Below, piece by piece: positions 20,166 through 57,095 of a stretch of DNA of 57,095 bases. Position 1 is the stretch's first letter; each line of letters begins with the position of its first letter. The translations under genes and the position numbers were made by a program. Origin of the DNA: a virus (taxonomy: Duplodnaviria; Caudoviricetes). The notes beneath the pieces are model-generated. The model was not told where the DNA came from. It did no database searches and worked only from the letters and a program-made list of their open reading frames with translations. The stretch lies in IMG/VR virus record IMGVR_UViG_3300032247_001291, positions 1 to 57,095 of that record. One strand, given 5' to 3'.

Positions 20166-20867
20166 TTATTTATTTAATTGTTTTAAAGGGTCTGTCCAGA
20201 ACATAGATATTGTATATCTTATGCCTTCTGTGACTGCTTTTACGCCATGCAAAGTATTTTCATCCCCTTGAAATGTAACCAACATGCCTTTTTTTGGTTT
20301 AATTGTAAAATTTTCATATTGTGGAAACCAAAGCTCTCCCCCGACATAATCATCATTAAGATAGATAAGTGTTGAATAATGTTTTGTTTGAAATCTGCCT
20401 TCAAAACTCTTTAACCAATCTTTTGGAATATTATTTTTAGCAAGCATTTCATAATCGTGATCCCTTTCGTTTTCCAAAAAATAATCTAAATGGGGGGCTT
20501 GCTCTCTTCCTATTCGCCATCTATTAATTAAATATTGTTCTTTTAATAAATTAGTTACATTAAATTTTTCTTCAGTATGAGGTTTCATTCTTTTTGCTAA
20601 ATTTTCAAAATATTCTTTATCAAGTTTATATCTTTCATAAAATTCTAAATTTGTAAAATTAATACACATGCCGTCCCATTGTGTTATAGATGGCCACAAA
20701 GCTGGGTCAACATCTTTTTCTTTTGGATAATTAATATCAAAATCCAAACTCCAAAGATTTTCTGAAAAAGATTTAACACTAAGAATTTTATCGCACTCTT
20801 CATCTGTTAAAAAATTATTTATTATTCTTATATTTGGTTTTTTTAAATCAATTATATTATTGCTCAT
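20166..20867 (-). CDS. 2OG-Fe(II) oxygenase, prolyl-4-hydroxylase-like
   Basis: HLD...YLNDDYVGGELWF...HGV...RYT (HxD, H, R). Confidence 0.88.
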   Translation of the reverse strand: MSNNIIDLKKPNIRIINNFLTDEECDKILSVKSFSENLWSLDFDINYPKEKDVDPALWPSITQWDGMCINFTNLEFYERYKLDKEYFENLAKRMKPHTEEKFNVTNLLKEQYLINRWRIGREQAPHLDYFLENERDHDYEMLAKNNIPKDWLKSFEGRFQTKHYSTLIYLNDDYVGGELWFPQYENFTIKPKKGMLVTFQGDENTLHGVKAVTEGIRYTISMFWTDPLKQLNK

Positions 20868-22941
20868 GATCTTCTACATTTTCTTTCAAACGATAATCAG
20901 ACCAATAAGGTGAAAAGTATGGTGGTGGGAAATATGGTGGACCTACTGGTGGAGTTGGTGGAGTTGGTGGACCTACTGGTGGAGTTGGTGGAGTTGGTGG
21001 ACCTACTGGTGGAGTTGGTGGAGTTGATGCAGTAACAGTAAAGCTAGTAGTTCCAGTTGCATTTGGAGAAATTCCATTTGAAACTGTCCATGCTAATCTA
21101 TAGCCATATGTTTGTAATTGAGTTGGTGTAAAAGTTGAACCCGTTCCATCTTGAACCCAACTGAAAAATGAAGATTGGTGTTGCCAAGAGTAAGTATATG
21201 TAAATGTTGATGGAGTTCCAGACCATCCAGAAGGTACTGCAGAAAATTGTGTACCAACAGCACCAGATGCAGGAGAAACACTTACAGATCCGCCAGTTGG
21301 AGCTGCTGATACTACGGTCCATCTTGCATAAAAAAGAGCATTGGCTGTTACGGTCCATGATCCACCAGCATTTAAACCATAAGTATAATCACCAGAAGGT
21401 GTGTCACGCCATTGCAAAAAAGTGTAACCATCACGTGTTGGGGTTGGGGCAGTAACCGTACTCCCAGATGCTGCTGTAGAGCTTGTTGGAGTTACGGTTC
21501 CTCCATTTGCATTCCACGTTATAGTATAATTTGGTATCCATCTTGCATAAAAAAGTATATTTCCAGTTACTGTCCATGAGCTTCCTGCATTCAACCCATA
21601 AGTATAATCTCCAGACGGGGTATCTCTCCATTGTAAGAAAGTGTAACCATCACGTGTTGGTGTCGGAGCAGTAACCGTACTTCCAGATGCTACCGTAGAA
21701 CTAGATGGTGTTACAGATCCTCCATTTGCATTCCATGTTACGGTATAATTTGGGGTAGCTGTTCCCGTTACAATAAATAAATATGGAACGTATCCATACA
21801 AAGTGTAATATACATAAACAGTAACAGAATTTCCTGGAGACATACCAGTAACCGATACCGCACCTGTAGTAGAATTTACCGTAACTGTTCCCGTTCCTGT
21901 TTGAGTATAATAAGAATAAGATCCACCTGTTGGATTTGGAGCAGTAGAAATTGTTGCATTAAATCCATTAGACGATGATGTTGGTGTTCCATATGCTGGA
22001 TTTGTTGTTAAAACTGAATTTATTGGTCCATATTTTGCATAGGCTGAAGGGCTTGCACTGCCATATTGATATACATTCCAATCAGACTTACTATTATATT
22101 CATAGTTTACTGCGTAATAATAATTACCAACAATGGCGGGATTTAAAGTTAAAGATGCATTAACTGTATACAAAGTTCCATCATTTGATATAGAAGGAGT
22201 TGTTGATGAAACATAAGTTGCATTTGCAATAATTTGATCTACACTTGTATATGTACCAACAGTGCTTCTATACCATAAAATAGCACTTCTTGTATTATCT
22301 GGAAGATAATCTGCTGTCCCGTTCCATTTATTTACATATGCAAGAGTTGTTACCGAAGTCGCTGCATTGTATGAATAATTTATTGTAGGAGTATAAGCAG
22401 ATTGAGTAGGTATATATTTTCTACAAACAAAATATCTTGATCCATTACCGTCTGTGGTTTCAATTCCAGTAACACCAGTTGTTGTAGTATTAGCATCTAT
22501 TTCGCCATAGATATAATAACCATCATATATTGCAGCTGAAAGCGGGATAGTTGCATATTGGGTTAAAGTACCAGAAGCAGCATTATATTGTGATGCTGTT
22601 GTATTTATATTTCCATTACTTGTTGTATATACATAATATGAATATGACGATATGGTGTATCCATTTGATAACCACGTTCCTTTTTGTAAATATACCGTGC
22701 TGCCTGTATCTAATGTGAGTCCAGCTATGGGAGATGTTCCAGTTGTAGTTGAAGCAAAATATGGAAACGTAGTAGTATATGGTCCAGATTTAGGAAAAAA
22801 TTGTATCCAACCAGCAGCAGTTCTTACAAAAGCAGATTTTGCTTTAACCCAAGTGCTAATAGCAGTTTTTACAGATATACTTACTACTTTAGGCCAAGTA
22901 CTTGAACTTGAAGTACCACTAGTTTTTACGAATAATGGCAT
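20857..22941 (-). CDS. Tail fibre/adhesin with two InlB B-repeat (Listeria-Bacteroides)-like domains, Pro-rich tail and truncated S74 motif
   Basis: Last gene of the tail module; Thr/Ser/Tyr-rich; 2x YTVTWNANGG...PTRDGYTFLQW...FYARW; PPTPPTPPVG repeats; ends WSDYRLKENVEDHEQ. Confidence 0.75.
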   Translation of the reverse strand: MPLFVKTSGTSSSSTWPKVVSISVKTAISTWVKAKSAFVRTAAGWIQFFPKSGPYTTTFPYFASTTTGTSPIAGLTLDTGSTVYLQKGTWLSNGYTISSYSYYVYTTSNGNINTTASQYNAASGTLTQYATIPLSAAIYDGYYIYGEIDANTTTTGVTGIETTDGNGSRYFVCRKYIPTQSAYTPTINYSYNAATSVTTLAYVNKWNGTADYLPDNTRSAILWYRSTVGTYTSVDQIIANATYVSSTTPSISNDGTLYTVNASLTLNPAIVGNYYYAVNYEYNSKSDWNVYQYGSASPSAYAKYGPINSVLTTNPAYGTPTSSSNGFNATISTAPNPTGGSYSYYTQTGTGTVTVNSTTGAVSVTGMSPGNSVTVYVYYTLYGYVPYLFIVTGTATPNYTVTWNANGGSVTPSSSTVASGSTVTAPTPTRDGYTFLQWRDTPSGDYTYGLNAGSSWTVTGNILFYARWIPNYTITWNANGGTVTPTSSTAASGSTVTAPTPTRDGYTFLQWRDTPSGDYTYGLNAGGSWTVTANALFYARWTVVSAAPTGGSVSVSPASGAVGTQFSAVPSGWSGTPSTFTYTYSWQHQSSFFSWVQDGTGSTFTPTQLQTYGYRLAWTVSNGISPNATGTTSFTVTASTPPTPPVGPPTPPTPPVGPPTPPTPPVGPPYFPPPYFSPYWSDYRLKENVEDHEQ
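20860..20938. repeat. 79-bp exact direct repeat, copy 1 (copy 2 at 56925-57003)
   Basis: Base-by-base identical: ttgctcatgatcttctacattttctttcaaacgataatcagaccaataaggtgaaaagtatggtggtgggaaatatggt. Confidence 0.95.
20936..21026. repeat. 30-bp tandem repeat x3 encoding PPTPPTPPVG
   Basis: acctactggtggagttggtggagttggtgg units. Confidence 0.9.
21319..21756. repeat. 219-bp imperfect tandem duplication (two 73-aa domains)
   Basis: ccatcttgcataaaaaag recurs at 21319 and 21538; the protein repeats are nearly identical. Confidence 0.85.
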
Positions 22942-22956
22942 TATTCAAATCCCTTT

Positions 22957-25900
22957 CTAAACAGTTGATACCCATAAGTCCCCAACAAATCCATCATTAC
23001 TTCCTGCTGAAGGTGCACCTGCGTGTACATAAACATTTCTTACATAAGAACCAGTACTACCAAGTACTGGTGTATCATTTCTGGTTCTTGTTAATCCGTT
23101 TAAATAAAGATTGCTGCTTGATCCCCGACCTATAATTGTAGATGCACTATCTATATATGTAATAGAAGTGCTTATTGCAGTAAATCCTGTTGTTGAGGTT
23201 GGTGTTCCATCAGCATTCCAAGTTGTCGAAGTTCCGTCTGGATCTACAAAAAATGCTGGCACCGATCCTTTTGCCTGTGAAGTTCCAAAAACTTGAAAAG
23301 CTTTTTTAGTAGTTATAATCATATACTTATCTGATTTAAGATATCCAGCACCATATGTAACTGTTGTGGCTTCTCCATTTGCGGTTGCTGCTGTAGCTGG
23401 AATTGAACCACCAGTTGATACAGAATAATATGTTACATTTGAACCCAAAGCAGTAGTATCATTTGCATAAGAAACAACAGCATTATTAGCTGAATCTAAT
23501 AAAATATAAGAAGATGCGCCTGTTGTAGTTGCAACAGATTTAATTACAGCAGAATCAATTGTCCAATAATTTGTTCCGCTTCCTATTTTACCAGTTGTTG
23601 CAGTTATGTTTCCAGTTATAGTTGCATTACTTGCGGTCATATCACCAACATGAGTTACAAAAAATTTAGGAATGCCAGATAAAGCACCAACACTAATTGC
23701 ATAATCAGATGATGTTGATGTCCCGCCATAAAGCTTTACTCCAAAATTATTTTGTGTAGCACTATAATCATTAGGAAATACTGTTATTGTTCCATCTGAA
23801 GAGTTTAATTCTATTTGATTAGAATATATTTTGCCAGATTTAACTACCCAAGGTTTATCTGAAGCTTGCATTCCGCCTAAATAAGCAGCTATTGTTGCTA
23901 ATGAAACTTTATCATCACTTATCTCACTAGATGAAATTTGTGTTGTTAATAGATGTGCTTTGTTATATGATTTTATTCCAGCTGATCCAATTTGAACACT
24001 AGAACCAGTATCAATTGTAGAAGCAGTACCTGTTGATGTTGTTCCTAATGCTAATAAATATGCATTTGAATTAAGAGTTATATCGCTAGAAAAAGTAGAA
24101 GATTGCGATACGTTTAAATGTCCAGATATTGTTGCATTAGAAGCATTTACAGTTCCATCTCCTTTAACTGTAAAATATGCGCCTGCACTTAAAAGTGTAT
24201 CTGAATTGTTCCCGCTACCGTATATAACTATATCTCTTGCGGATACTTTACCTTGTGGGGTTACAGAAAACTTAGCACTTAAATCTCCACCGCTTACTGC
24301 AGAACCAGCCCAAAAAGAATATGTTCCAGTTGCAGAAAGTCCTACATAATTTGTAGCACCATTAGACAATGTATTTTGAATCTGTGTGCTGTTAATTGAC
24401 CAATCAGCAATTTTTGCATTTGTAGTTTCAAAAGTATAGCTTGCTGCGCTAGGGTTTGTAATAATAGATGTACTTGCAGCACTGCCAGAATTTGATCCAT
24501 AATCAAATGCAAATATTCCAGAATATGCAGTTGAACCATCTGGACCTTTGTTGCCAGATGGACCTAAAACAATTCTAGATCCTGTTGTGGAGCTTGCGCC
24601 TACGTATATTGAACCACCAGAACCTATCTGTACTGCGTTTGCTATAACAGACGTAGCTGGGTTTGTTGGGGTAGCTAAATAATTTATTGATGGAGATGAA
24701 TTGTTATCATAATCATCATAAAAAACAACTAATACATATACAGTTTGATATAAATTTAAAAATATGTTTGCAGCAGTTGTACCTTTATATACAAGATTTT
24801 GTATATGATAGTTGCCTGAAGCTTGAGAAGTTAAATTTTTACTTAATGTTATTGTTCTTGATGTCCCCGATCCAGATAAAGATTGAACATATGTGTTGGA
24901 AGGTATTCCATTTCCAGTAATAATGCCGCCAATATATTCATTTGGTATATTATACGTTGCTCCATTATCACCAAGCCAATTATTTAAAATTAAAGTATTT
25001 TGACCAGATGCTCCGCCAGAAGAAAATGTTGCATCAAGATAATCCTGTATATCTATATTAAGATTTTTTAAAGGTGTTGGATCAACAAGAAATTGATAAA
25101 CTTCTGCATTTGTAGCTGCAGTTCCAGAAAAGTTAAAGTTTACAGTGTATCCATCAATTACATTTGATATAGAAGCAACTGGGACAACTCCAGAAAGTGG
25201 GTTAGCTCTTGTAAATGTTGATAAACTTGCTACTGATGTACTTTCTGTACCATATTGAGATACTCCATAAACTGATCCAGAATATGAAGAAAAATAATTT
25301 CCAAATTGTGCAAATATTAAATTTTGAGGAATTGTAAAACTTGTTTCACCAGATACAACTGTATGATAAAAAAATCCTGCTTGTGTAGGTTGATCAGTTG
25401 GCACTAATTTTACTTTAAGAGATATTAATGCATTTGGGTCTGTGGGAGATATTGATGGCAAGGTATAGCTTACTGTAATGTTGTTTCCATTAAATGCTGC
25501 AGAGGCACTTGTTACCCCGCTTGGAGGCAATGTATTATTTGGCAATAAATCTGTAGGGGTTGCTTCTACATAATTTGAATACGCAGACTTTGCACCAAGC
25601 GTATCCATGAACCAAGCTCTTACATATCTATGACCTCCACTTGCAGCAAATATTGAAGATGGACTTATTGTTTTTGGTTCCCCCACAGTAACCCAACCAG
25701 ATTGATTTGCTGCTAAAGCTGCAGCTACTGCTGCGTCTACTTGAGTTGAATTAAGTCCAGTTGTTGCATATGTAAACTCTTGAATTATTTCTGCCAAAAA
25801 ATTGCCACCTACTGTTGCTTTGGCAGCATCAATATTTGTAGTTGTTATGGTATATGAAGATACTGAATCTGCTTCTGTTATGATTGGGGCTGGCAGGAGA

Positions 25901-26517
25901 CAAGTATACGTATTAGATATAGCCGATTTAACATATCCAGCAGTTTGAAGAAATGTGTCGTAGGTTGCAACTTCTACATAATTAAATGAAACTGAATTTG
26001 CAAGTCCACTTGCAGAAGCTTTAACCGTAACAGTTTGATTTATAGATGAGGTTGATAAAGAAGATGCTTCATATGATGGAGTTATAATTGTAAAAGTTGT
26101 TCCACCATCTAAACTTAAGCCAACATTAAAATTAAAGAAAAATTGATTTCGTGGATCAGAAACGTCAAAATCAAAAGTTAATACTATATCTCCGCCAACA
26201 TAAGATGCTTGCAAATTTGCAACTTGAAGAGGTGCTGTTCCTATTACTGGTTCTAAATTACCACCAGTTCCTCCTGCCCCGCCTTCTGCACCGCCTCCAG
26301 TATAAGGATTGCTAAATGATGCTGATTGTATTCCGACAAGCATTGCACTAAGATTTTTATTTAAACCAATAGGAGATATATATCCATTTTGTCTTGCTTG
26401 TTTAAATGGAGCAGTTATGGAATTTGCAGAAGGATCTAAATTTATATCAATAGGAATCGGTTGTCTTCTTGCAGAAGAAGAATCCGATATATAAGTAGGA
26501 TTTAAATTAATTTTCAT
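22957..26517 (-). CDS. Minor tail protein / central fibre
   Basis: 1186 aa, Ser/Thr/Gly-rich with FN3-like strands; ASNATISG-type beta repeats; C-terminal GDLWV. Confidence 0.7.
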   Translation of the reverse strand: MKINLNPTYISDSSSARRQPIPIDINLDPSANSITAPFKQARQNGYISPIGLNKNLSAMLVGIQSASFSNPYTGGGAEGGAGGTGGNLEPVIGTAPLQVANLQASYVGGDIVLTFDFDVSDPRNQFFFNFNVGLSLDGGTTFTIITPSYEASSLSTSSINQTVTVKASASGLANSVSFNYVEVATYDTFLQTAGYVKSAISNTYTCLLPAPIITEADSVSSYTITTTNIDAAKATVGGNFLAEIIQEFTYATTGLNSTQVDAAVAAALAANQSGWVTVGEPKTISPSSIFAASGGHRYVRAWFMDTLGAKSAYSNYVEATPTDLLPNNTLPPSGVTSASAAFNGNNITVSYTLPSISPTDPNALISLKVKLVPTDQPTQAGFFYHTVVSGETSFTIPQNLIFAQFGNYFSSYSGSVYGVSQYGTESTSVASLSTFTRANPLSGVVPVASISNVIDGYTVNFNFSGTAATNAEVYQFLVDPTPLKNLNIDIQDYLDATFSSGGASGQNTLILNNWLGDNGATYNIPNEYIGGIITGNGIPSNTYVQSLSGSGTSRTITLSKNLTSQASGNYHIQNLVYKGTTAANIFLNLYQTVYVLVVFYDDYDNNSSPSINYLATPTNPATSVIANAVQIGSGGSIYVGASSTTGSRIVLGPSGNKGPDGSTAYSGIFAFDYGSNSGSAASTSIITNPSAASYTFETTNAKIADWSINSTQIQNTLSNGATNYVGLSATGTYSFWAGSAVSGGDLSAKFSVTPQGKVSARDIVIYGSGNNSDTLLSAGAYFTVKGDGTVNASNATISGHLNVSQSSTFSSDITLNSNAYLLALGTTSTGTASTIDTGSSVQIGSAGIKSYNKAHLLTTQISSSEISDDKVSLATIAAYLGGMQASDKPWVVKSGKIYSNQIELNSSDGTITVFPNDYSATQNNFGVKLYGGTSTSSDYAISVGALSGIPKFFVTHVGDMTASNATITGNITATTGKIGSGTNYWTIDSAVIKSVATTTGASSYILLDSANNAVVSYANDTTALGSNVTYYSVSTGGSIPATAATANGEATTVTYGAGYLKSDKYMIITTKKAFQVFGTSQAKGSVPAFFVDPDGTSTTWNADGTPTSTTGFTAISTSITYIDSASTIIGRGSSSNLYLNGLTRTRNDTPVLGSTGSYVRNVYVHAGAPSAGSNDGFVGDLWVSTV

Positions 26518-26533
26518 CCAACACCCCTATCTA

Positions 26534-27070
26534 TTACTTGTGACCTATTGCAATCCAACTTACATTAATATAATAATTTCCGCCATAAAGCCATCTGCCA
26601 TCTTTATTAGCTCCGCCATAAGAACCATGATTTGCTTTATTTATACCAGTTTTTCTTAAAACTATTTCAAAAGATGATTGGTTTACAACACCAATACTTA
26701 CTACTATATCTTGAGCATATTGAGATTGAAAATTTACAGTTTGCGGTTGCGCTGTTATTATTGGTCCTTTTGAATCTGTAAAGGGCACGGTAAAGCTAAC
26801 AGTTTTTTTATAATAATATTCATTATCTCCTGCGTTAAATATGGCACCGTCAGCTTCACTTATCCTTGTTGAGCCATATAAAATTTGTTGAGATGCTATA
26901 TCAAATTGTGTTTGTGTTGTAGAATCTGAGGTGTTTGTAGCAGAATATATGCTACCAAAGTTATTAGTAATAGCTGATATATTATCGCTATGTTGATTTA
27001 CAACGTTTATAATCTGATGAATTGTTGGAAGATCAATGATCTTGGGGTCTGATATTTTTATGTACGCCAT
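26534..27070 (-). CDS. Minor tail protein (H-type-lectin/gp53-like C-terminus)
   Basis: VSFTVPF...PIITA...VSWIAIG pattern. Confidence 0.55.
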   Translation of the reverse strand: MAYIKISDPKIIDLPTIHQIINVVNQHSDNISAITNNFGSIYSATNTSDSTTQTQFDIASQQILYGSTRISEADGAIFNAGDNEYYYKKTVSFTVPFTDSKGPIITAQPQTVNFQSQYAQDIVVSIGVVNQSSFEIVLRKTGINKANHGSYGGANKDGRWLYGGNYYINVSWIAIGHK

Positions 27071-43342: not shown

Positions 43343-43377
43343 TTTTTATTTCACCACCTTTGTATTTGTTGATTTTG

Positions 43378-48229: not shown

Positions 48230-48272
48230 ATTTTCTCCTTAATAATAGATATTAATTTTAGCACAAAATTAT

Positions 48273-49025
48273 TTAAATTGCTCCATAAAAAAACATTGGT
48301 TTTGATGAAGTTTCATTTTTATGAATTGTACAAACTGGCACTGTTTTAAATTTTACAATGTCCCAAAATTCAGCTTTATTATTACAATTTACACAAAACA
48401 AATCTTTCATTCTATCTTTTTGTTTTTCTTTATTATTTGTTTTTGTATTAAATGCAACTAAAGGAGTAAATTTTTCCTTTTTAATATAATTAATATTGTA
48501 AGACCAATCAATCATTCCAAAACCATCGTCTTTAATAGATGGGGCAGATAAATGATCAAGTATTAATTCAATGTCAACATTACCCTCAGTCAACAAAGAA
48601 AAAGAAATAAAACATGGATATGAAGAAGAATCAATTGATAAAACAAGATGTCCAGTTTCAAATATAGCAAAAACATTTTGAGATATTAAATTTTTATCTT
48701 TTATTAAATTTAATATTTCATCTATATTGCCATTATAAACTTCTTCAACATTAATAATATTAATACTATATATTTTTTCTGGATTTTCTATTTTTTTATA
48801 TGTTACATATGGACCATGTAACAATTTTCCCAATCCATAATTATGTTTAATATCAAATCCATGATCACAAATATGTTCATCTGGGTAACTCAAAAAGCCT
48901 CTTATTACATTAGAAACATTTTCTATATTTAATATCGGGTCTAGGCAAAAACCTTGTATATAAAAATTTTTAATTATAATGTCATCATGTATTTGTTTTT
49001 TAATGATTTCATTAGTAATTTCTAT
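48273..49025 (-). CDS. Divergent S-adenosylmethionine decarboxylase (SpeD)-like protein, probably inactive; start uncertain
   Basis: LHGPYVTY and AIFETGHLVLS...YPCFISFSL resemble the SpeD core (ETSH). The frame is open to 49034, well upstream of the TTG at 48893. Confidence 0.45.
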   Translation of the reverse strand: MEITNEIIKKQIHDDIIIKNFYIQGFCLDPILNIENVSNVIRGFLSYPDEHICDHGFDIKHNYGLGKLLHGPYVTYKKIENPEKIYSINIINVEEVYNGNIDEILNLIKDKNLISQNVFAIFETGHLVLSIDSSSYPCFISFSLLTEGNVDIELILDHLSAPSIKDDGFGMIDWSYNINYIKKEKFTPLVAFNTKTNNKEKQKDRMKDLFCVNCNNKAEFWDIVKFKTVPVCTIHKNETSSKPMFFYGAI

Positions 49026-49708
49026 TTTATATACCTACCATCCTTTTGTTTCATATCAAGTGATTTTTCATTTCTTTGTAATGGTGTATGCCACTGTGAT
49101 AGATTTTTAGAATATTCTTTATATTCTTCTGTTCCATAATTATAAAAAGATCCTGGATTTTTTTCTGGAGCTAAAGCAAAATTAGAAAATGCATATCTGT
49201 GACCAGACTTTACACCCTGAACTCCATGCATATGCTCTTTTAATGCACCGTGTATTATTAAATCTCCAGGTTGAACTGGCACTGTAATATCTTGGTTTGG
49301 ATAATAAACTTCCCCGCCAGTAAAATCACCAAAATAAGTAATTGCTGCGTAGGTTAAAAGGCAACATGTGCCCCAAACATCTGGTACAGTTAGACTTTCA
49401 TTCATATCTTCGCCTGGACTGTCACAATGTGGTTCCATTCCAACATCTTCAGCATAATAAATCATATTTAATAATGGATGCATTACTAAATCTGGGTAAA
49501 TAAATTCTGACATTTTTTCCCATATTGGAAACAATTCTTCCATATGCTCTGTAGTCTCAAAATGAATTTCTTCAAAATAATGTGGTTTTACCTTTTTATT
49601 CATAACCACTTCATTTATTTTTTCAACTTCTTCTTTAGACAAAAAATTTTTATACCAGAATATTCCATCTGCTACTTTTATAATATTGGGATTAGATTCA
49701 AATTTCAT
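49022..49708 (-). CDS. 2OG-Fe(II) oxygenase, P4H-like
   Basis: HCD...FTGGEVYY...HGV...RY. Confidence 0.88.
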   Translation of the reverse strand: MKFESNPNIIKVADGIFWYKNFLSKEEVEKINEVVMNKKVKPHYFEEIHFETTEHMEELFPIWEKMSEFIYPDLVMHPLLNMIYYAEDVGMEPHCDSPGEDMNESLTVPDVWGTCCLLTYAAITYFGDFTGGEVYYPNQDITVPVQPGDLIIHGALKEHMHGVQGVKSGHRYAFSNFALAPEKNPGSFYNYGTEEYKEYSKNLSQWHTPLQRNEKSLDMKQKDGRYIK

Positions 49709-49738
49709 TATATACCACCTTTGTATAAGTAAATTATA

Positions 49739-50332
49739 TCACGCTTTATACCAAAAGCCTGGGGACATGTATTTTACCCCATTCTTTATCGGCATAGATT
49801 CGTGATAATAAGGTTCTGTTGATGGGAAAACCATAATACTCCCAGCTTCTGGTTTAATTTTTATACCTTGTTTATTAAAATAAAGTTCTCCACCTTCATA
49901 ATCGTCATTTAAATATGCAACAACAGAAATGACTGGAGACCTGTCATCTCCATACGAGTCTACGTGTGGTCCCATTTCTTTTCCAACAAAATATTTACTT
50001 ATAGAAAGTGGCATTAATTTACCAATATCAAAATTAAACATTTCTGAATAATGTTTTGAAACAACAACAATTGCATTGTTAATTGAATCATAAATTAATT
50101 TAGTTTCATTTGATGAATTATCATAATTGTTAAAATTCATCATTTTTTGTTTACCAAACGTATAACTTTTATCACTTGAAATCCAGTTATTCCATTTTGA
50201 AACTACTGATAAATTTAAATCATCTAAATCAGTTTTTTCAATTAAATTTAATAAATCAGAAACATTTTCTATAGCATTTTTATAATATATTATTTTGCCA
50301 TATTGCTCAACTTCAAGCATTTTTATTTCCAT
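49739..50332 (-). CDS. 2OG-Fe(II) oxygenase, P4H-like
   Basis: HVD...YLNDDYEGGELYF...HES...KY. Confidence 0.88.
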   Translation of the reverse strand: MEIKMLEVEQYGKIIYYKNAIENVSDLLNLIEKTDLDDLNLSVVSKWNNWISSDKSYTFGKQKMMNFNNYDNSSNETKLIYDSINNAIVVVSKHYSEMFNFDIGKLMPLSISKYFVGKEMGPHVDSYGDDRSPVISVVAYLNDDYEGGELYFNKQGIKIKPEAGSIMVFPSTEPYYHESMPIKNGVKYMSPGFWYKA

Positions 50333-51044
50333 TTTTCCATTCTAGCTGTTGTTTTTCTTGTTCAATTCTAATTAATTTTTCTTCATCTTTCCATTTTTTT
50401 ATTATCTCTTCACTATATTCTATGTCTGCATAATCCCAAAATGAAACCATGGTATATCGTGTTCCTTCTAATATTTCTTTAACGCCATGAATATTTTCAA
50501 CTCCGCCACAAAACACATAATATGAAAATGCATTTGGTTTAAATTCTATTCCATGATCTGGAAAATAAAGTTGACCACCAGAATAATTGCCGTTTAAATA
50601 TAAAATTCCAACATATTTATTTATTTCAAATGCATTTGGATTTCCTTCAAAATCAGAATTGTCTGAATGTGGATTGGCAAAACCACCAACTTCCCATTTT
50701 TGAGCATGAGATGTATTTGGACGAACTTTTTTATCAAATACTAGTTCTACTGCTTCTTGAAATTTTTTCTTTATATCAAGAAAAAAGTTTTCTTTAAGTC
50801 CAAATTGTAAAAAGTTGGGATCATTATCTTGAAGACCCATACCCTTTGATCCATAAAAAGCAATTGGACCCCATTCTTTTTCACAAAATTCAAAATATTT
50901 TATCATCGCATTTGCAGTTTTTTCTGATACAAAATTAGGAATTTCAACAATTCTATTATCTGTAACCCCTAGGCTACCTTTATTATTCTTTTCATCTTTT
51001 AAATAAATAAAATTATTTTTATCTAAGTTTTCTATTATTGTCAT
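50313..51044 (-). CDS. 2OG-Fe(II) oxygenase, P4H-like
   Basis: HSD...YLNGNYSGGQLYF...HGV...RY. Confidence 0.88.
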   Translation of the reverse strand: MTIIENLDKNNFIYLKDEKNNKGSLGVTDNRIVEIPNFVSEKTANAMIKYFEFCEKEWGPIAFYGSKGMGLQDNDPNFLQFGLKENFFLDIKKKFQEAVELVFDKKVRPNTSHAQKWEVGGFANPHSDNSDFEGNPNAFEINKYVGILYLNGNYSGGQLYFPDHGIEFKPNAFSYYVFCGGVENIHGVKEILEGTRYTMVSFWDYADIEYSEEIIKKWKDEEKLIRIEQEKQQLEWKNGNKNA

Positions 51045-51852
51045 TTAACCCTTCTCTCCTTCTTACTGGAACAATTGTCTGTTCATATATCTGTTTCCAT
51101 TTTTCTAAACCATGTTCTTTTTCTAGCTCTAACCATTCTTGTGAAGCTTCATTTGGAAATAAATAAAAATATCTTATAAAATACTTATCATTTTTAGTAA
51201 CTTCTTTAACTGCATGAAAATAAATATCATTATCTGACAATAACTTAGGGTGACCTGAAGGGAAGACCATCACGTCCCCAGCTTTTGGTTTATATGGCAT
51301 TCTACCTTCATCATGCATCATTTTAAATACAACATCTCCACCTTCATAATCGTCATTAAGATACATGGTGCATGTTAAAGCAAATTTTGGCATTGGGGAA
51401 TCAAATTCCATCCATTGATAATCAGTATGATATGTCATTGATAAATCTCCAGCTATATCATTTTTATGCACTACAACATTTTGATCATATCTGCAGTATG
51501 AGGGGCCCATGGTTAACCAATCTTCACCAATTTCAACATTGTGTTCATTTAAAAAATGCTTTGTTGATATTTTAAAAGCATTTAATACTTGTTCATTAAA
51601 AGCATTTTCTTCTAAATACCTTTCATCATTTTCTAATTCAACATCATGAAAATGCAAAGGCACTCCAGATCCAGGACTCATATATGTGCCAAACTCTGCC
51701 CATTTACCCCAATTTGAAAATATAAAACTTGAGCTTGGATTAAGCTCACTTTCTTTTAACAATTCAACCAGTCTTTCTGGATTTTTAATTAAATTTTTAT
51801 AAACATAAATATTTTTATCAAACTCATAGTATTCTATATTTGCACTTGTCAT
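51019..51852 (-). CDS. 2OG-Fe(II) oxygenase, P4H-like
   Basis: HTD...YLNDDYEGG...HAV...KY. Confidence 0.88.
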   Translation of the reverse strand: MTSANIEYYEFDKNIYVYKNLIKNPERLVELLKESELNPSSSFIFSNWGKWAEFGTYMSPGSGVPLHFHDVELENDERYLEENAFNEQVLNAFKISTKHFLNEHNVEIGEDWLTMGPSYCRYDQNVVVHKNDIAGDLSMTYHTDYQWMEFDSPMPKFALTCTMYLNDDYEGGDVVFKMMHDEGRMPYKPKAGDVMVFPSGHPKLLSDNDIYFHAVKEVTKNDKYFIRYFYLFPNEASQEWLELEKEHGLEKWKQIYEQTIVPVRRREGLNDNNRKLR

Positions 51853-51855
51853 TTT

Positions 51856-52536
51856 TTAACTTTCTACATTTAACTTTAATATAGTCCAAAAAAAAGGACA
51901 AGTATATCTAATTCCTGATTTTATTTCTGTTACTCCATGAATATAATTTCTATCTCCTGGGAAAAAGTATGCTGACCCTCTTTTAGGTTTAAATTTAATA
52001 TTTTGTAAAGGAAAATAAAGCTCTCCTCCTTCATAATCATCGTTTAAATAAAATAAACTAGATAAATCATAATATGGAAAATCATTAGGAACTCCAACAT
52101 TTGGCTCTTCGTGAAGTTCTTTATCTGCATGCGGGTTTTGTAATTGTCCTGGAAGCCATCTTACTATTGTTTCAGTTGTAGGTTTTATTTCCACATTAAA
52201 ATGTTTTTCAACTATTGGTTGTAATTTTTTAAATAAACTTTCTATTACTGGTCCTATTTTAGGATCATTTAAATCTAAAGTTCCCCTAGTGGCTACACGA
52301 TCTTTCCAATATTCAGAATCATAAATTACTGTACCGTCTTCATTTTTATGAGTTTCTGTTACATCCCAAATAGTTATAGATTTTGCAGCATTTTCTAAAA
52401 AATTAATTTCTTCATCTGTCATAAAATTTTCTAAAGCAATTATATTTTCAGGACCATTTCCAAAATATCCAGAAGGTGTTATAGAAAATAAATTTGTATC
52501 TTTTGTACTATTTGTTACATTATCATTTCTTATCAT
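51856..52536 (-). CDS. 2OG-Fe(II) oxygenase, P4H-like
   Basis: HAD...YLNDDYEGGELYF...HGV...RY. Confidence 0.88.
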   Translation of the reverse strand: MIRNDNVTNSTKDTNLFSITPSGYFGNGPENIIALENFMTDEEINFLENAAKSITIWDVTETHKNEDGTVIYDSEYWKDRVATRGTLDLNDPKIGPVIESLFKKLQPIVEKHFNVEIKPTTETIVRWLPGQLQNPHADKELHEEPNVGVPNDFPYYDLSSLFYLNDDYEGGELYFPLQNIKFKPKRGSAYFFPGDRNYIHGVTEIKSGIRYTCPFFWTILKLNVES

Positions 52537-53261
52537 TTATATTCTCTTTTTTCCCATACTTCATTTTTATAAACTCCCCCATCTGGCGTTCTATATTTTT
52601 TTGAATTATCCATATTTTTTTGATAAATGTTTTCTGGTAATTCAAACTCAATTTTTGATTCCCAATTTTCTTTTTTAAATGGTAATATTTGCATATATGG
52701 AGTCCCAGCTTTAATTATACCCTGAAAACCTTTAGCTATATAAAAAGGGATAAGGCCTGGTAAATTAACTTTATCATTATCAATTATTCCAAATGGCATA
52801 GTAAATGGAAGATCATATCTATTCATTGGATGTGTATATAATGCCGTATAGCCTTCTGGCAAAACTGTTGCCCAGTCTGGATACCAAGCAAAATGATCTT
52901 CATAATGACCCATAGGAGCTTGAAATCCTGGCATTGGTGGGCGCTCAGTACAAAAATGTTTTAAATTATCATCATAAATCTTTACACAAATTTTGCCTTT
53001 ATCATCCAAATAAAATTCAATATCACATGGTAATCTTAAAACATAGCCAGTTATTAAAACATCAAATATAGATGGACAAGCTTTCCAAGTAAGCATTAAA
53101 CTTCCATCTTGTTGCCTATAAGCATCACCATTTGGCATTTTATGATATCTTTCAGCTTTTCTATACCAATCTGGCAAATGTTTTATTGTTGGTTCTGGGG
53201 TTGTGGTGCTGTCCTTATTAAGACTGTATGAGTTACTTATAAATTTAATAATATTATTCAT
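52533..53261 (-). CDS. Hypothetical beta-rich protein (DUF6065-like)
   Basis: PDWY...KACP...GY...P.GY...HP.N...GIID.D...GTPYMQILP. Confidence 0.55.
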   Translation of the reverse strand: MNNIIKFISNSYSLNKDSTTTPEPTIKHLPDWYRKAERYHKMPNGDAYRQQDGSLMLTWKACPSIFDVLITGYVLRLPCDIEFYLDDKGKICVKIYDDNLKHFCTERPPMPGFQAPMGHYEDHFAWYPDWATVLPEGYTALYTHPMNRYDLPFTMPFGIIDNDKVNLPGLIPFYIAKGFQGIIKAGTPYMQILPFKKENWESKIEFELPENIYQKNMDNSKKYRTPDGGVYKNEVWEKREYK

Positions 53262-53970
53262 TTATTACTCCAGTATGATCTTTAACTTGCAATTTAAATG
53301 ATTTTATTTCATGCTCTCCAATTTTTTCATTTTTATAATTAACTGCATCTCTATAAAAATTAGTAAATTTTCCAGACATGCTTATTTCCATATATTTTTT
53401 AGCATGTTCTTTTTGATCTTTATAATATGAATCAGGAAAATTTGCTTTATATAAATTTACTTCAAAATCTTTAATTGACTGTAAAGATAATGGAAGCAAA
53501 GCTATAATTGGAGTATTTGCTGGTATTACGATTTCTACATTTGGTCTTGTAATTTTCCAAGCAGCTGGAAATACTTGATCATAAAAAGAAGTACTTATAA
53601 CGGTTGTAAAAGCTTGTGCTCCATCTATAAAACCATTAGGCACTGGCATATGAACCATGCTTACGCCTTTTGGCGTTTTTATAATCAAACCAGTATTAAA
53701 ACTAATTGTTGCATTACCTCTATTAGCACTACAATAATTGTTACCTTTTAAAATTTTTACATGAGAATCTGAAGAATCAGAAATTCCATCCCAGATAAAA
53801 GATATTTCTTCTGGAAAAGATATTCCCCAACCCATACAGTTAGATAAACTTACTGGAAAACATTTATATGCGTGAGCATCATTTGTTTTATCCATCCATT
53901 CTCGTGTTACTTCAAGTGGAGCTATGTTTGCAGATTTTTGATGCTCTTTAAAAACATCTATTGATATCAA
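53254..53970 (-). CDS. DUF6065-like protein
   Basis: REWMD...HAYKCFPVSLSN..GW...PVPN...WKITRPN. Confidence 0.6.
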   Translation of the reverse strand: MISIDVFKEHQKSANIAPLEVTREWMDKTNDAHAYKCFPVSLSNCMGWGISFPEEISFIWDGISDSSDSHVKILKGNNYCSANRGNATISFNTGLIIKTPKGVSMVHMPVPNGFIDGAQAFTTVISTSFYDQVFPAAWKITRPNVEIVIPANTPIIALLPLSLQSIKDFEVNLYKANFPDSYYKDQKEHAKKYMEISMSGKFTNFYRDAVNYKNEKIGEHEIKSFKLQVKDHTGVINE

Positions 53971-54626
53971 TTTCCAGAATCCTCATACATTTCTCTTGTA
54001 TGGAATTTTGAACTATAATCTGTCATTGTAACAATTGAATATTTTAATCCAGAAATAACTTTTTTTGCTTGGTGGGGATACATATAATTAGATGGGAAAA
54101 TGTACAAATCTCCAGCTTTTGGTTTTATATTTAAATCTTGCAATCTAAAATAAAGTTCTCCGCCTTCATAATCATCATTTGGATAGCCAACCAAAGAAAC
54201 CGTACAGTTATAAGAATAGCCATGATCATGATGTTCCATAAAATGTTGATTTGGACCATATTTAATAAAATTAAAAGCTTCCCAATACTTCAATTCCATA
54301 ATTCTAAATTTTTCACAATAATCATCTAATGCTGGTTTTTGCCTATCATATACATCTTGCCACAATTGTTGTAAATTTTTTGAAACTTCTGATGTATCCA
54401 ATTCAATATCAGATTTTTTAAATTTAAAATCATAACAATCTCGATATTCTGGCATTTTTTCTCTATAGCCAACCATAGCTTCTTGCCATTGGTATTGTGG
54501 ATTTTTTGTTTTATCTAAATTAAATTCTAATCTATTTATAATATCAAGATCTTTTGGCAATGCGTCACGGTATACTAAAATTCCATTTCCAAAATCTTCA
54601 ACTGAAGACCAAGTTTGTATAGACAT
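53967..54626 (-). CDS. 2OG-Fe(II) oxygenase, P4H-like
   Basis: HHD...YPNDDYEGGELYF...FPSNYMYPH...KYS. Confidence 0.88.
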   Translation of the reverse strand: MSIQTWSSVEDFGNGILVYRDALPKDLDIINRLEFNLDKTKNPQYQWQEAMVGYREKMPEYRDCYDFKFKKSDIELDTSEVSKNLQQLWQDVYDRQKPALDDYCEKFRIMELKYWEAFNFIKYGPNQHFMEHHDHGYSYNCTVSLVGYPNDDYEGGELYFRLQDLNIKPKAGDLYIFPSNYMYPHQAKKVISGLKYSIVTMTDYSSKFHTREMYEDSGN

Positions 54627-54652
54627 ATTATCTCTTTCTACTAGTTGACTTT

Positions 54653-54706
54653 ATTATACCATAAAGTATTTATTAAAAGTGATAATAATATAATAAATGA
54701 TATAAT
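54653..54706. promoter_or_regulatory. Divergent extended -10 promoters
   Basis: TGGTATAAT on minus (54653-54661) and TGATATAAT on plus (54698-54706). Confidence 0.6.
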
Positions 54707-54712
54707 TAATTT

Positions 54713-55396
54713 ATGGACAATAGACTAAAAAAAATACACACCCACCCTAATTTTGAAATGCTTGAAGAAAGAATTTGGGTTATTCATGATTTTATTAATC
54801 CTGAATTTAGAGAATATTATTTAAATATTGCAAACAATGCTTTAGAAGAAGAATGGTGGAAAAGAGAGCCAGGATGGTGGAATGGAAAATTTTTAGTATT
54901 ACCTCAAGATAACAAAATTCCAAATATGATTGTTGATGAAATTAAAAAATGGATAGATGACCCAGATTATTGGATATGGGGTCAACCCGCTTCTGTGCAT
55001 AGAATGAAAGAAGGCGAATCTATGTTTTTACATGCTGATAATCCAAATGAAAAAAGTGGTTTAAATAATTGGGTTGATTTAAGTTTTGTTTTATATCACA
55101 ATGATTTTAATGGTGGAGAAATTATATACCCAGAATTAGGTTTTGAATATCATCCAAGAGCTGGGGATTTACTTATGCATCCAGGATCTCAAAGCCATAA
55201 GCACGGAACAAAACCAGTTCTTCCTGGTCCCATTAGATACAATTCAACAATGTGGGCTTATGACAATAGAGCAAAAAAACTTCACGATGATCATAAAGTT
55301 TTTGAAGGAAGCAAAGCAAGAAATCAAGTATATCTTATACAAAATAATATGCAATCAGAAGATATATATAGTATTGGTGAGGGTAAAAAAAATTAA
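54713..55396 (+). CDS. 2OG-Fe(II) oxygenase, P4H-like (only credible plus-strand gene)
   Basis: HAD...YHNDFNGGEIIY...HGT...RY. Confidence 0.88.
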   Translation: MDNRLKKIHTHPNFEMLEERIWVIHDFINPEFREYYLNIANNALEEEWWKREPGWWNGKFLVLPQDNKIPNMIVDEIKKWIDDPDYWIWGQPASVHRMKEGESMFLHADNPNEKSGLNNWVDLSFVLYHNDFNGGEIIYPELGFEYHPRAGDLLMHPGSQSHKHGTKPVLPGPIRYNSTMWAYDNRAKKLHDDHKVFEGSKARNQVYLIQNNMQSEDIYSIGEGKKN

Positions 55397-55899: not shown

Positions 55900-55908
55900 T
55901 TAACGTTA

Positions 55909-56631
55909 TTATCCTTCCATTTTATAAAACAAAGAATTAGTATTAAAAACTTCTGCATCAAATTTTGCCCAATTTAAAATTATTTCTTTTTCTTTTTCAT
56001 TTAAACTTTTATATATTCTTGTAGAATCTGGATTCCAGTAATTGGATGCTTTTTGCATAGGATGGTTTATTGTTTGAATTGGTATATTTAAATCAGACAT
56101 AATTTTATTTAAAACTTTTTTTATATTTTTTTCTTTTAAATCTTCTGATCTTATTAATAAAGATACTTCATTTAAACGATTAAAAATTATTTCTTTAGAT
56201 AATATGCAATTTTTAATAGAAGAGCTTGTAACATAACTACTTTTATCCATATTTGAATTTGAAACTAAAAAATTTTTTGATTGGATATTAGCATAAATAT
56301 TTTTATTTTTTTCCATCCAATCAAACATTTTATACTTATCATAATTTAAATCTCCAACTGGAACCAGTCTTCTTGTGTCATCTCCAAGCATACTATAGTG
56401 AGAATAAGTACTTACAGTATGTGCTACTGGATCTCTAAATAAACTTGTTACATAAGTTTTATCTGTTATAAAATTAGCCCAATGCTGATGAGCAACATAA
56501 GAATCTCTGTCATAAAAATTTTTAATGTTATTTTCTTTTAAAATTTTATCTAAAGGAACAACTATATTTTGAGTAAAAAATCTACCAGCAGTTTTAATAA
56601 TGTGTAAAAAATAAAAACTATCTTTGTTCAA
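55909..56631 (-). CDS. Sulfotransferase-family protein
   Basis: 5'-PSB-like FLHIIKTAGR and 3'-PB-like FRDPVAHTVS; C-terminal D.EVF. Confidence 0.7.
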   Translation of the reverse strand: MNKDSFYFLHIIKTAGRFFTQNIVVPLDKILKENNIKNFYDRDSYVAHQHWANFITDKTYVTSLFRDPVAHTVSTYSHYSMLGDDTRRLVPVGDLNYDKYKMFDWMEKNKNIYANIQSKNFLVSNSNMDKSSYVTSSSIKNCILSKEIIFNRLNEVSLLIRSEDLKEKNIKKVLNKIMSDLNIPIQTINHPMQKASNYWNPDSTRIYKSLNEKEKEIILNWAKFDAEVFNTNSLFYKMEG

Positions 56632-56932
56632 TTTTTTTTATTTTTTCTTCCAAAACTTCAATTTTTTTTAAAGTTAATTGAAGCACTTCTACAAGATATG
56701 GTACTAAAACTGCTGGTTTAATTTGTTGATATTCTGGATTTCCATTTTTATCCATACCATCTTTATTCCCTGTTACAGCGGTTGGCACTAATTCTTGAAG
56801 TTCATGAGCAATAAAGCCAAGATGTTTTTCTTTTTTTTCATCAAATACATAATTATATTCTTTTACTTTAAGATTTTTAATAACATAAGTTGAATCTATT
56901 ATATTATTCATCTTTCTTATTATCTTGCTCAT
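56618..56932 (-). CDS. Stand-alone peptidase S74 / intramolecular chaperone body lacking the SDxRLK N-terminus
   Basis: IKNLKVKEYNY...GFIAHELQELVPTAVTG.KD...YQQI...LVPYLV...coiled coil; alternative start at 56911. Confidence 0.85.
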   Translation of the reverse strand: MSKIIRKMNNIIDSTYVIKNLKVKEYNYVFDEKKEKHLGFIAHELQELVPTAVTGNKDGMDKNGNPEYQQIKPAVLVPYLVEVLQLTLKKIEVLEEKIKKIEQR

Positions 56933-57095
56933 GATCTTCTACATTTTCTTTCAAACGATAATCAGACCAATAAGGTGAAAAGTATGGTGGTGGGAAATAT
57001 GGTCCAAAGCTAGGTGGGAAGAACGGTGGGAAGAACGGTGGGAAGAACGGTGGGAAGAACGGTGGGAAGAACGGTGGGAAGAACGGTGGGAAGAA
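56904..57095 (-). CDS. C-terminus of a Pro/Phe-repeat protein (5' part outside the window)
   Basis: Hand-translated (FFPP)7-SFGPYFPPPYFSPYWSDYRLKENVEDHEQDNKKDE-stop. Confidence 0.85.
   Translation of the reverse strand, partial: FFPPFFPPFFPPFFPPFFPPFFPPFFPPSFGPYFPPPYFSPYWSDYRLKENVEDHEQDNKKDE
56925..57003. repeat. 79-bp exact direct repeat, copy 2
   Basis: Identical to 20860-20938. Confidence 0.95.
57013..57095. repeat. 12-bp tandem repeat GGTGGGAAGAAC, at least 7 copies
   Basis: Perfect units up to the window edge; encodes FFPP on the minus strand. Confidence 0.95.

Follow-up and report, generated by a model that had tools for sequence, protein, structure and literature searches.

A sequence of 79 nt recurs without a single difference (79/79 nt) at the 3' end of each of two unrelated genes for Pro-rich, virion-type proteins in the 57,095-nt stretch of viral DNA analysed here (the window). 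It encodes the missing N-terminal piece of a Peptidase_S74 domain, and one separate S74 body is encoded behind the second copy. The best explanation, to which we assign a probability of about 0.6 on the strength of sequence comparisons and a complex model, is a naturally split S74 that would serve several tagged proteins in trans, their tags being kept identical by gene conversion. One helper body probably serves both Pro-rich proteins, as far as sequence and model can indicate.

The repeat and the genes around it

The sequence-only reading had reported an identical 79-bp C-terminal tag on two different Pro-rich proteins, and this was confirmed. The identity ends at both edges of the repeat, and all genes around both copies lie on the minus strand (table 1). 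An exact repeat of 79 nt is far beyond chance. Both copies are translated as PYFPPPYFSPYWSDYRLKENVEDHEQ, in which a Pro/aromatic motif, PYFPPPYFSPYW, is followed by SDYRLKENVEDH, the first 12 positions of the Peptidase_S74 domain; this second part is presumed to include the Ser-Lys dyad and the scissile bond. The Ser-Lys motif at the start of S74 domains, S-D-x-x-x-K, is present in both tags as SDYRLK, so the dyad is located on the client and not on the body. The positions of the dyad and of the cut were assigned from the accessible part of PMC8326128. The 694-aa protein consists of two Flg_new (InlB B-repeat) domains, then (PTPPTPPVGP)x3 and then the tag, and the C-terminus of its 60%-identical orthologue P0010 is a diverged tag.

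Table 1. Features at the two copies of the repeat (positions of the window)
Feature	Coordinates	Strand	Description
Tag copy 1	20860..20938	-	Last 26 codons of the 694-aa protein, PYFPPPYFSPYW + SDYRLKENVEDHEQ; also contains the start region and ATG of the downstream oxygenase
S74 'cable', copy 1	20866..20901	-	SDYRLKENVEDH; custom HMM positions 1-12
Presumed dyad, copy 1	20899..20901 and 20884..20886	-	Ser681 and Lys686; presumed cut between Trp680 and Ser681
Fibre-like protein, 694 aa (client 1)	20857..22941	-	Last gene of the tail module
2OG-Fe(II) oxygenase, 233 aa	20166..20867	-	PF13640, E 1.5e-9; starts MSNNIID at the ATG inside copy 1
Tag copy 2	56925..57003	-	The 26 codons of copy 1, here close to the C-terminus of the FFPP-repeat protein; also contains the start region and first ATG of the S74 body ORF
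S74 'cable', copy 2	56931..56966	-	Same 12 codons as copy 1
18-nt segment, copy 2 only	56907..56924	-	Contributes DNKKDE to the tail of the tag; in the body ORF, contributes KIIRKM and a second ATG
FFPP-repeat protein, 3' end (client 2)	56904..57095	-	5'-open ORF, cut by the contig end in a 12-nt tandem repeat; continues six codons past the tag (DNKKDE)
Stand-alone S74 body ORF	56618..56932	-	+1 frame relative to the tag; start MSKIIRKMNNIID
Gene after the body, 240 aa	55909..56631	-	Same position in L143, 53% identity

The whole window holds only one S74 body, after copy 2, so that none follows copy 1, as had been noticed before. The overlapping ATG starts an oxygenase at copy 1 and the S74 body at copy 2, again in agreement with the earlier description. 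Translated from the ATG inside the tag, the body has 104 aa, and from the second ATG (56909-56911) it has 97 aa; public assemblies call it at either length. Copy 1 does read like copy 2 with 18 nt removed; beyond the 18-nt segment, the two copies match again at 13/14 nt. The echo of the S74 body start in the first codons of the oxygenase can be accounted for more simply than the earlier description supposed. Relatives of the oxygenase at 60-67% identity natively begin M-(N/E)-I-I-D, and a derivation of its start from the S74 body is therefore ruled out; NIID is a microhomology common to the two downstream genes. At least nine 2OG oxygenase genes are encoded in the window. A Pfam search of the 240-aa gene after the body gave no match, and its homologue in L143, a contig described below, gave a weak match to Sulfotransfer_1 below the cut-off (E 0.032).

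Complementarity of tag and body and conservation of the split

The body matched PF13884 (Peptidase_S74) with 32.7 and 33.9 bits (cut-off 22) over profile positions 13-57 of 58, and it aligned with PHROG tail-fibre families solely over their last ~90 positions at the C-terminus. The tags are too short to score in Pfam. With a custom HMM of 104 positions, built from 66 unique canonical S74 domains, the tags were placed at positions 1-12/14 (E about 3e-4 to 6e-4 in a 13-sequence search) and the bodies at positions 9/13-103, that of the window at 9-103. The tag is the missing N-terminal piece of the S74 domain. The canonical state is a single frame: SDYR.K was found in frame just upstream in 79/80 IMG/VR relatives of the body, and the body lay inside a longer protein in 149 of the 150 best representatives. 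In the window and in contigs L143 and L144, cable and body occupy different frames or genes, so that the domain is not intramolecular, as Peptidase_S74 requires, and is a split derivative rather than a canonical member.

A model of three fibre ends with three bodies reached an ipSAE of 0.79, against 0.00 for the best of three controls, a score to which likeness to solved S74 structures may contribute. The ipSAE mark was attained by 116/157 solved complexes and 2/215 mismatched pairs, rates that hold only roughly here because our own alignment was supplied. At least 58% of the contacts were common to the model runs, partner pLDDT was at least 87, and the predicted interface joins fibre residues 676-694 with body strands/residues 15-23, 31-36 and 59-67.

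The separation of the two pieces recurs in relatives. Stand-alone bodies of 88-98 aa made up 21 of the 44 matches (clusters) of the body alignment; they share one start point, lack the cable and occur on contigs of up to 117 kb. SDYR(L/T)K was retained at the tag-only ends of five otherwise different proteins, P0010 included, and the dyad residues and the flanking Asp were conserved in all tags seen. The search for tag copies in related phages, which the sequence-only reading had proposed, thus yielded both tag-only proteins and stand-alone bodies, so the tag is not unique to this genome. A second lineage (L143, L144 and L145) repeats the whole pattern. In L143 and L144, the stop of the FFPP-tag gene and a 4-nt spacer are followed by a GTG-started body of 95 aa (53% identical) without gene overlap, and the four genes that come after it are in synteny with those of the window, at 40-53% identity. 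The L143 homologue of the FFPP-repeat protein is 354 aa long. In L145, the tag sits on a 685-aa PT-rich protein, with no body within its 10.3-kb contig. The tags of L143 and L145, on two different proteins, were identical at 108/109 nt; these are separate contigs from the same metagenome, not shown to be one genome. Within each of the two lineages the tags were near-identical, but between lineages they had diverged, which shows that recombination exchanges the tag DNA or makes it uniform. In the L143 lineage the pieces for tag and body overlap (profile 1-24 and 12-57), so that the domain is not divided cleanly in every case. The DNA context of the split was seen in the window and in three other split contigs. 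On sequence grounds, the split is not an accident of this contig.

Other searches helped to delimit this distribution. A scan for the pattern YFPPPYF gave 38 loci, none with an S74 cable after the motif and none with a body within 4 kb; the Pro/aromatic part of the tag thus exists apart from the S74 part as well. The back-translated tag pattern (W-SDYRLKENV) had 0 matches in viral contigs, blastn of positions 20000-27000 had none in phage records, and scans of metagenome contigs with the body alignment and with a degenerate pattern gave nothing confirmed. P0025 found no match in genome contigs, nor did P0010 in viral contigs, and tblastn of P0025 and P0007 against annotated phages returned only unrelated tail proteins and canonical fused S74 ends.

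If the split domain works as proposed, the remainder of the S74 domain (helices, beta-strand 'donut' and C-terminal coiled coil) would be made once, as a separate protein of 97/104 aa. Three tags would thread into a trimer of the free body, like the cable into the neighbour's donut in canonical S74 trimers, and this threading would set the register and trimerise the Pro-rich stalk from its C-terminal end. The dyad would then cut before Ser, giving products that end in ...SPYW. The tags would be kept matched because both clients must fit the same body, and gene conversion or recent recombination between the loci would give the exact DNA identity. Of the earlier idea of a portable tag addressed to one trans S74 chaperone, the pairing of tag and body is favoured by their complementarity, by conservation in relatives and by the predicted complex, whereas binding in trans, cleavage and trimerisation are what we infer. 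That the tag might also direct proteins to the modifying enzymes, as the same idea held, is suggested only by gene neighbourhood.

Alternative explanations of the repeat

Exact DNA identity taken alone is equally well explained by recent recombination without function. The sequence-only reading had offered, as its other option, a recombination hotspot that swaps fibre ends and downstream cassettes. Exchange or homogenisation of tag DNA was borne out (79/79 and 108/109 nt within lineages, with divergence between them). We consider it unlikely, though, that such swaps left the tag on the 694-aa protein as a vestigial stub without a role, so that only the FFPP protein, if any, uses the body. Such a scar would account for the exact identity with sharp edges and for the NIID microhomology that links the two downstream genes. 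Moreover, linker types are swapped between the orthologues P0001 and P0010 (PTPP versus FFPP), and in the relatives L083-L087 the Pro-rich protein encoded upstream of the oxygenase has a Cys-rich tail and no tag. Nevertheless, P0010, the counterpart of this fibre, has a tag that diverged but is still intact, SDYR(L/T)K persists on the five tag-only proteins and in L145 while later residues drift, which is unexpected of a scar, and the model places the copy-1 tag in the body with high confidence. A docking peptide without cleavage, in which the tag binds a free body that stays as a non-covalent distal cap or knob, draws on the same evidence for binding as the split S74, namely HMM complementarity and the complex model. 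It also has a parallel in the separate IMC-like 'caps' of Alteromonas phages A5 and V22, for which the accessible part of PMC10579305 reports no cleavage. We hold this to be improbable, since conservation of both dyad residues and the flanking Asp in all tags seen points to retained catalysis, and in MyRF either S587A or K592A abolishes cleavage (PMC8326128, in the part available).

Another way to join the pieces would be a programmed +1 ribosomal frameshift or transcript slippage that fuses the FFPP protein to the body and makes the domain in cis. The body is indeed in the +1 frame, and its ORF begins before the FFPP gene has ended. However, the +1 frame has a TAG two codons upstream of the ATG, which leaves an interval of about 33 nt at copy 2 (15 nt at copy 1) with neither a homopolymer run of at least 5 nor an XXXYYYZ site, and in L143 the two genes are set apart by a 4-nt spacer between the stop and the GTG start. 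The body was also called as an ORF of its own, with M or V starts, in several assemblies, and a frameshift could not supply a body at copy 1 or in L145. We rejected this very unlikely reading for the lack of a slippery site and the layout of L143. An artefact of assembly, in the form of a repeat that was collapsed or chimeric close to the end of the contig, is scarcely credible. Copy 2 is indeed 92 nt away from the contig end, that end is located in a tandem repeat, and the read evidence consists of contigs from three runs of one study, possibly the source samples and hence not independent. But two direct copies with four distinct flanks permit a single linear order. The contigs of the three runs break inside the tag and join it to the body flank, to both copy-1 flanks and, in one variant contig, to the FFPP flank, so that all four were seen joined to it; the depth of the tag unitig was about 1.4-2.4x that of the unique flank (37 vs 20.1, 50-85 vs 35.4 and 422 vs 239). 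The exact proteins were also found on contigs of about 109 kb in assemblies from JGI, ENA and Logan (the 694-aa protein on 2 recorded contigs, the longest of 108,975 bp; the body on contigs of up to 109,369 bp from all three sources), and the same architecture is found in L143-L145. According to CheckV, the available sequence is an estimated 53% of the genome, and further bodies, tags or a canonical S74 may lie in the rest.

Comparison with known systems

S74 domains are the standard example of a chaperone that functions only while joined to its client, from which it then releases itself by cleavage. A split S74 occurring in nature is a system in which to ask whether folding and cutting proceed in trans, what the cable itself contributes and how specific the pairing of cable and body is. 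That one body appears to be shared by at least two unrelated proteins, whose tags stay identical within a lineage, suggests a route to swap or add receptor-binding proteins without duplicating the chaperone, and a split S74 may be useful as a small removable trimerisation tag. Judging from gene neighbourhood, the Pro-rich stalks with hydroxylase-like genes bear on the unexplained 2OG oxygenases of aquatic phages. We tentatively go one step further, at somewhat less than even odds: the single free S74 body may be a shared trans assembly-and-cutting factor for Pro-rich virion proteins, recruited through a portable catalytic cable tag, with tags and body matched by recombination in each lineage, and together with the prolyl-hydroxylase-like oxygenases it may form a procollagen-like maturation pathway. 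In procollagen, the C-propeptide brings three chains together, fixes the register of their proline-rich stalk and is later removed by cleavage. The likeness is one of working only, with prolyl-hydroxylase-type enzymes encoded alongside; there is no homology.

Homology to the Peptidase S74 / ICA / CIMCD group (K1F endosialidase, T5 L-shaped fibre, GA-1 neck appendage and MyRF) is above the Pfam cut-off. In the solved ICA trimers, as the accessible part of PMC8326128 describes them, the cable, which bears the S/K dyad, passes through the donut of the adjacent subunit and is cut just before Ser; equivalent dyads given there are S911/K916 of endoNF and S587/K592 of MyRF. As in canonical S74, an SDxxxK cable with the Ser-Lys dyad comes directly after the client's stalk, and the body matches the C-termini of tail-fibre families. 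In contrast to canonical S74, the domain of the window is carried on two polypeptides, the client keeping a cable of 12-14 residues with both catalytic residues and the body being a separate gene, and in the available sequence there is one body gene for two different clients.

Word searches of open-access text for a split or trans-acting S74 found the Alteromonas caps alone, which is not proof of absence. According to the part of PMC10579305 available, phages A5 (gp9) and V22 (gp27) have separate tail-fibre chaperones that form transient, IMC-like 'caps'. Like these, the window (at copy 2) and L143/L144 have a small chaperone gene just downstream of the fibre, which by analogy would act between molecules; the A5/V22 fold is described in that part as IMC-like and trimeric. 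There the likeness to IMC is structural (AlphaFold models), with no Ser-Lys tag on the fibres and no cleavage reported in the text available. Set apart from the caps as so described, the pieces in the window are homologous in sequence to a single S74 domain divided behind the cable, the clients keep the SDYRLK cable, and the tag is found on more than one protein.

A repeated tag and the S74 domain it completes

All genes of the tag region are carried by the minus strand, and the two copies of the shared C-terminal segment (the tag; repeat family D7) were identical at 79 of 79 bases, with the identity ending on either side. Both copies are translated as PYFPPPYFSPYWSDYRLKENVEDHEQ. At copy 2 the repeat is followed by 18 nt that are absent at copy 1, and the next 14 nt agree at 13 positions. 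The next gene at both loci is opened by an ATG within the tag, in the +1 frame; the 25 nt upstream of this shared ATG, themselves within the tag, are like the start regions of other window genes, which are weak and purine-rich. The sequence-only reading had described the 79-bp identity, the Pro-rich hosts, the overlapping ATG and the oxygenase at copy 1, and it was right in each of these points.

Features of the tag region and among the oxygenase genes
Feature	Position	Strand	Remarks
Tag copy 1	20860-20938	-	Last 26 codons of the 694-aa protein (20857-22941)
Tag copy 2	56925-57003	-	Near the end of the FFPP-repeat protein; followed by six further codons, DNKKDE
Gene opened by the tag ATG at copy 1	20166-20867	-	233-aa 2OG-Fe(II) oxygenase
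ORF opened by the tag ATG at copy 2		-	104 aa; 97 aa if the second ATG is used
DUF6065 protein	53254-53970		Among the oxygenase genes
Protein with APS-kinase-like N-terminal half	47471-48229		Among the oxygenase genes

The 104-aa ORF scored 32.7 bits (cut-off 22) with Peptidase_S74 (PF13884, "chaperone of endosialidase"), the match being limited to profile positions 13-57 of 58 in two separate scans. The missing first dozen positions were found in the tag, in the other frame. When a custom HMM was built from 66 unique canonical S74 domains, drawn from 78 of 80 related loci, SDYRLKENVEDH of both tags aligned with positions 1-12/14 and the product of the ORF (the body) with positions 9-103 of 104. 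Tag and body are thus complementary parts of one S74 domain by profile comparison, and a scan of the whole window found just one body. In the structural study of the MyRF ICA (PMC8326128), the catalytic dyad consists of a Ser and the Lys five residues on (S587/K592 in MyRF, corresponding to S911/K916 in endoNF), cleavage of the MyRF ICA occurs immediately before the dyad Ser, and the dyad stretch is a "cable" threading the beta-strand "donut" of the neighboring subunit in the trimer. Considering the profile complementarity and this structure, the tag consists of a Pro/aromatic motif and, after it, an S74 domain's catalytic cable, and the sequence matches identify the small ORF after copy 2 as the remainder of that domain. 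Compared with the canonical domain, 13 extra nt lie between cable and first helix at copy 1 and 31 (13 + 18) at copy 2, which we read as producing the +1 shift and the compact stop/start overlap. Judged from sequence, this is a naturally split S74 chaperone, and at least two proteins (the clients) have its putative catalytic cable as their common C-terminal tag.

The overlap could also be read as a programmed frameshift fusing the FFPP-repeat protein to the body. A TAG in the +1 frame two codons upstream of the ATG would confine the shift to about 33 nt at copy 2 or about 15 nt at copy 1, and neither interval contains a homopolymer run of at least 5 or a slippery heptamer. In a related contig, L143, the FFPP-tag gene and the body gene do not overlap at all, while at copy 1 and in another contig, L145, a frameshift could not supply any body. 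Separate initiation of the body is much the more likely.

Portal, protease, capsid, tape measure and minor tail proteins follow one another in the window, and the tail genes end with that of the 694-aa protein. The portal shares about 51% identity with the portals of Streptomyces siphoviruses of ~127 kb, and the G+C content of the window is 34%. Inside the 694-aa gene, a 217-nt tandem duplication (21318-21753; 83% identity; D3) corresponds to two Flg_new (InlB B-repeat) domains. At least nine genes (within 47471-55396, and 20166-20867) match 2OG-FeII_Oxy_3, one of them below the cut-off, and the repeated DNA families D2 and D5 are common to them. The gene after the body (55909-56631) may be sulfotransferase-like. 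The capsid gene and a 241-aa gene (38269-38994) are each closely preceded by a copy of a 38-nt repeat (38992-39029 and 43340-43377; 84% identity; D12); both copies end in the same ...AAAGGTGGTGAAATAAAAA-ATG start region, perhaps as a common signal for strong translation or late expression.

Assembly of the repeat and conservation of the split

The record, a linear contig in IMG/VR, has an estimated CheckV completeness of 53% and is all that the analysis covered of this genome. Because the two copies are direct and have four different flanks, no more than a single linear order is possible. Contigs from three sequencing runs, which belong to one study, are possibly source samples and so do not support the assembly independently, end inside the tag, which is usual for short-word assemblies at repeats. 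In all three, the body flank extends 30-45 nt into the tag, and 26 letters of the copy-1 PTPP flank come after the tag. The oxygenase flank was joined to the tag in one run (X3), and a single variant contig of another (X2) bridged the tag into the FFPP flank. Tag unitig depths of 37, 50-85 and 422 against unique flank depths of 20.1, 35.4 and 239 fit two copies. Across the body region, a strain variant in X3 showed four substitutions without any indel. Moreover, the exact 694-aa protein is recorded on two contigs, the longest of 108,975 bp, and the body on contigs from JGI, ENA and Logan of up to 109,369 bp. The tag repeat is regarded as real and not as an assembly artefact. The FFPP-repeat protein of the window is truncated by the contig end (57013-57095), which lies, like the start of contig L144 (L144:1-70), inside a 12-nt FFPP tandem repeat; since short-read assemblies evidently break there, the lengths of FFPP arrays in these records are unreliable.

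Among relatives of the body the split arrangement is unusual. SDYR.K stands directly upstream, in the same frame, at 79 of the 80 IMG/VR loci encoding body relatives. The sole exception, L009 (3001-3195 and upstream), has 64 in-frame upstream residues without a cable and may be a further stand-alone or differently split body. A profile of stand-alone bodies, scored against 1.84 billion representative proteins, gave 21,019 matches with E up to 0.001; the only stand-alone body in the top 150 was the window's own cluster, and in the 149 others the match began at residue 41 or beyond in a longer protein. The closest fused relatives among these 150 (P0043-P0049) are single proteins with a row of complete S74 domains, two to four in number and all in frame; every one of these domains has an SDYR.K cable, which gives the look of a chain of several cleavable units. 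Phage contigs reached via the oxygenase had ordinary unbroken S74 ends (profile 1-57, no stops). In a related contig (L103:14-1842), the gene immediately after that of a 230-aa 2OG oxygenase encodes a 371-aa collagen-like fibre with GPQ repeats and a canonical S74 end; here a hydroxylase-like enzyme is again paired with a fibre that is Pro-rich and S74-capped.

When the search was limited to proteins of about the body's length, it retrieved 94-aa proteins with 64% identity to the body that begin at the same domain point. With a broader alignment, 21 of 44 matches were proteins of 88-98 aa with an M or V start at the first helix and no cable, the other 23 being short proteins that still had the cable or apparent fragments. 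Some stand-alone bodies occur on up to 48 contigs, and on contigs of up to 117 kb. The tag also recurs: five proteins of differing architecture, among 34 matches to the FFPP fragment, end in ...YFP(P/G)PYFS..W(G)SDYR(L/T)K; beyond this motif they have a short tail, acidic for the most part, and they lack a body. One of these tag-only proteins, P0010, is an orthologue of the 694-aa protein (60% identity; terminus ...SDYRLKENIIDHEDEE), so the tag on this type of fibre is conserved between orthologues. The contigs L143 and L144 encode a 354-aa FFPP protein ending ...SPYFSPRWGSDYRLKDDIEEY...DIG, then a stop, 4 nt and a GTG-started 95-aa body, which is 53% identical to that of the window and matches Pfam profile positions 12-57; the genes after it match window genes in the same order with 40-53% identity. 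A rescan of viral contigs with the broadened alignment yielded 15 loci: these 2 split contigs, 12 canonical ones and 1 cut by the contig end. By these matches, the split is a conserved arrangement and not a private accident of the window.

The FFPP-repeat proteins form a large family (P0010-P0042) with interchangeable C-terminal ends. Counted by eye, the 33 matches beyond the window's own comprise 5 with the S74 cable, about 13 with Cys-rich tails, 4 with ...KDGTD(L/V)FLPGIIK..., 2 with ...WGGWRINPE..., 7 ending in or near the repeat and 2 unrelated. PVAP/FFPP-rich proteins without an S74 cable (at L110, L114/L120, L121, L125, L126, L131 and L137) have the Pro/aromatic half of the tag (YFPPPYFS..WGG) in several places, both internally and at the end, and several of these loci have 2OG oxygenases no more than 4 kb away.

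Matching of the tags and proposed action of the body

L145 has the same tag as L143 at the end of a PT-rich protein of 685 aa that contains Cys; a small DUF6171 protein and an oxygenase come next, and no body was found in this 10.3-kb contig. L143 and L145 come from one metagenome, though possibly from different genomes. Their tag DNA is identical at 108 of 109 positions between unrelated flanks, and differs substantially from that of the window tags, as does the encoded protein sequence. Near-identity of tags inside a lineage together with divergence between lineages is the signature of gene conversion or of repeated exchange of the tag segment, and such matching would be favored if all tags of a genome must fit one body. 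Recombination, one of the two alternatives of the sequence-only reading, accounts for the exact DNA identity of the window tags (79/79 nt). That the oxygenase start derives from S74 was rejected: relatives of the oxygenase (60-67% identity) natively start with M-(N/E)-I-I-D, resembling the body start ...NNIID, so the 14-nt match after the indel represents microhomology between two downstream genes, and this microhomology is a plausible crossover point. In L083-L087 the oxygenase likewise follows a Pro-rich protein, but one with a Cys-rich tail and no tag.

At least two clients share a near-identical tag in each lineage, and one body gene was found in the sequence available. We hypothesized that the free body trimerizes and that three tags thread into it, so that the Pro-rich stalk would be brought into register and trimerized starting at the C-terminus. 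Cleavage before Ser681 by the Ser-Lys dyad would then release the body with a 14-residue peptide and leave clients that end in ...SPYW, while recombination would keep the tags matched to the body. A complex model of three copies of fibre residues 645-694 and three of the body scored 0.79, the best of three controls scoring 0.00; 116 of 157 solved complexes attain the score mark, against 2 of 215 mismatched pairs, a calibration from which our own alignment and the 3+3 design depart. The runs shared at least 58% of contacts with partner pLDDT of at least 87, and the confident predicted interface joins fibre residues 676-694 (SPYW and cable) to body residues 15-23, 31-36 and 59-67. Considering that solved S74 trimers exist, this result may reflect likeness to them and not binding of these copies. 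Trans action of the free body is the best-supported mechanism, with a probability of about 0.6, and the split S74 offers a natural test bed of good interest.

Comparison with known systems

Procollagen, with its C-propeptide, provides a comparison for a C-terminal unit that trimerizes and is cut off, by analogy only. A word search of the open-access literature found no description of an S74 domain split after the cable, which is not proof of absence. The closest published system found is that of the "caps" of Alteromonas phages A5 and V22, which are encoded by separate chaperone genes and have an IMC-like predicted fold; unlike the tagged clients here, neither a catalytic tag on the fibre nor cleavage is reported for them in the sections of that study cited here (PMC10579305). 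Of the known families, S74/ICA itself stands nearest, the body passing the sequence test and the tags carrying the dyad, but the defining "intramolecular" feature is not found here. For this reason, the system of the window is best placed as a split S74 derivative and not as a canonical member.
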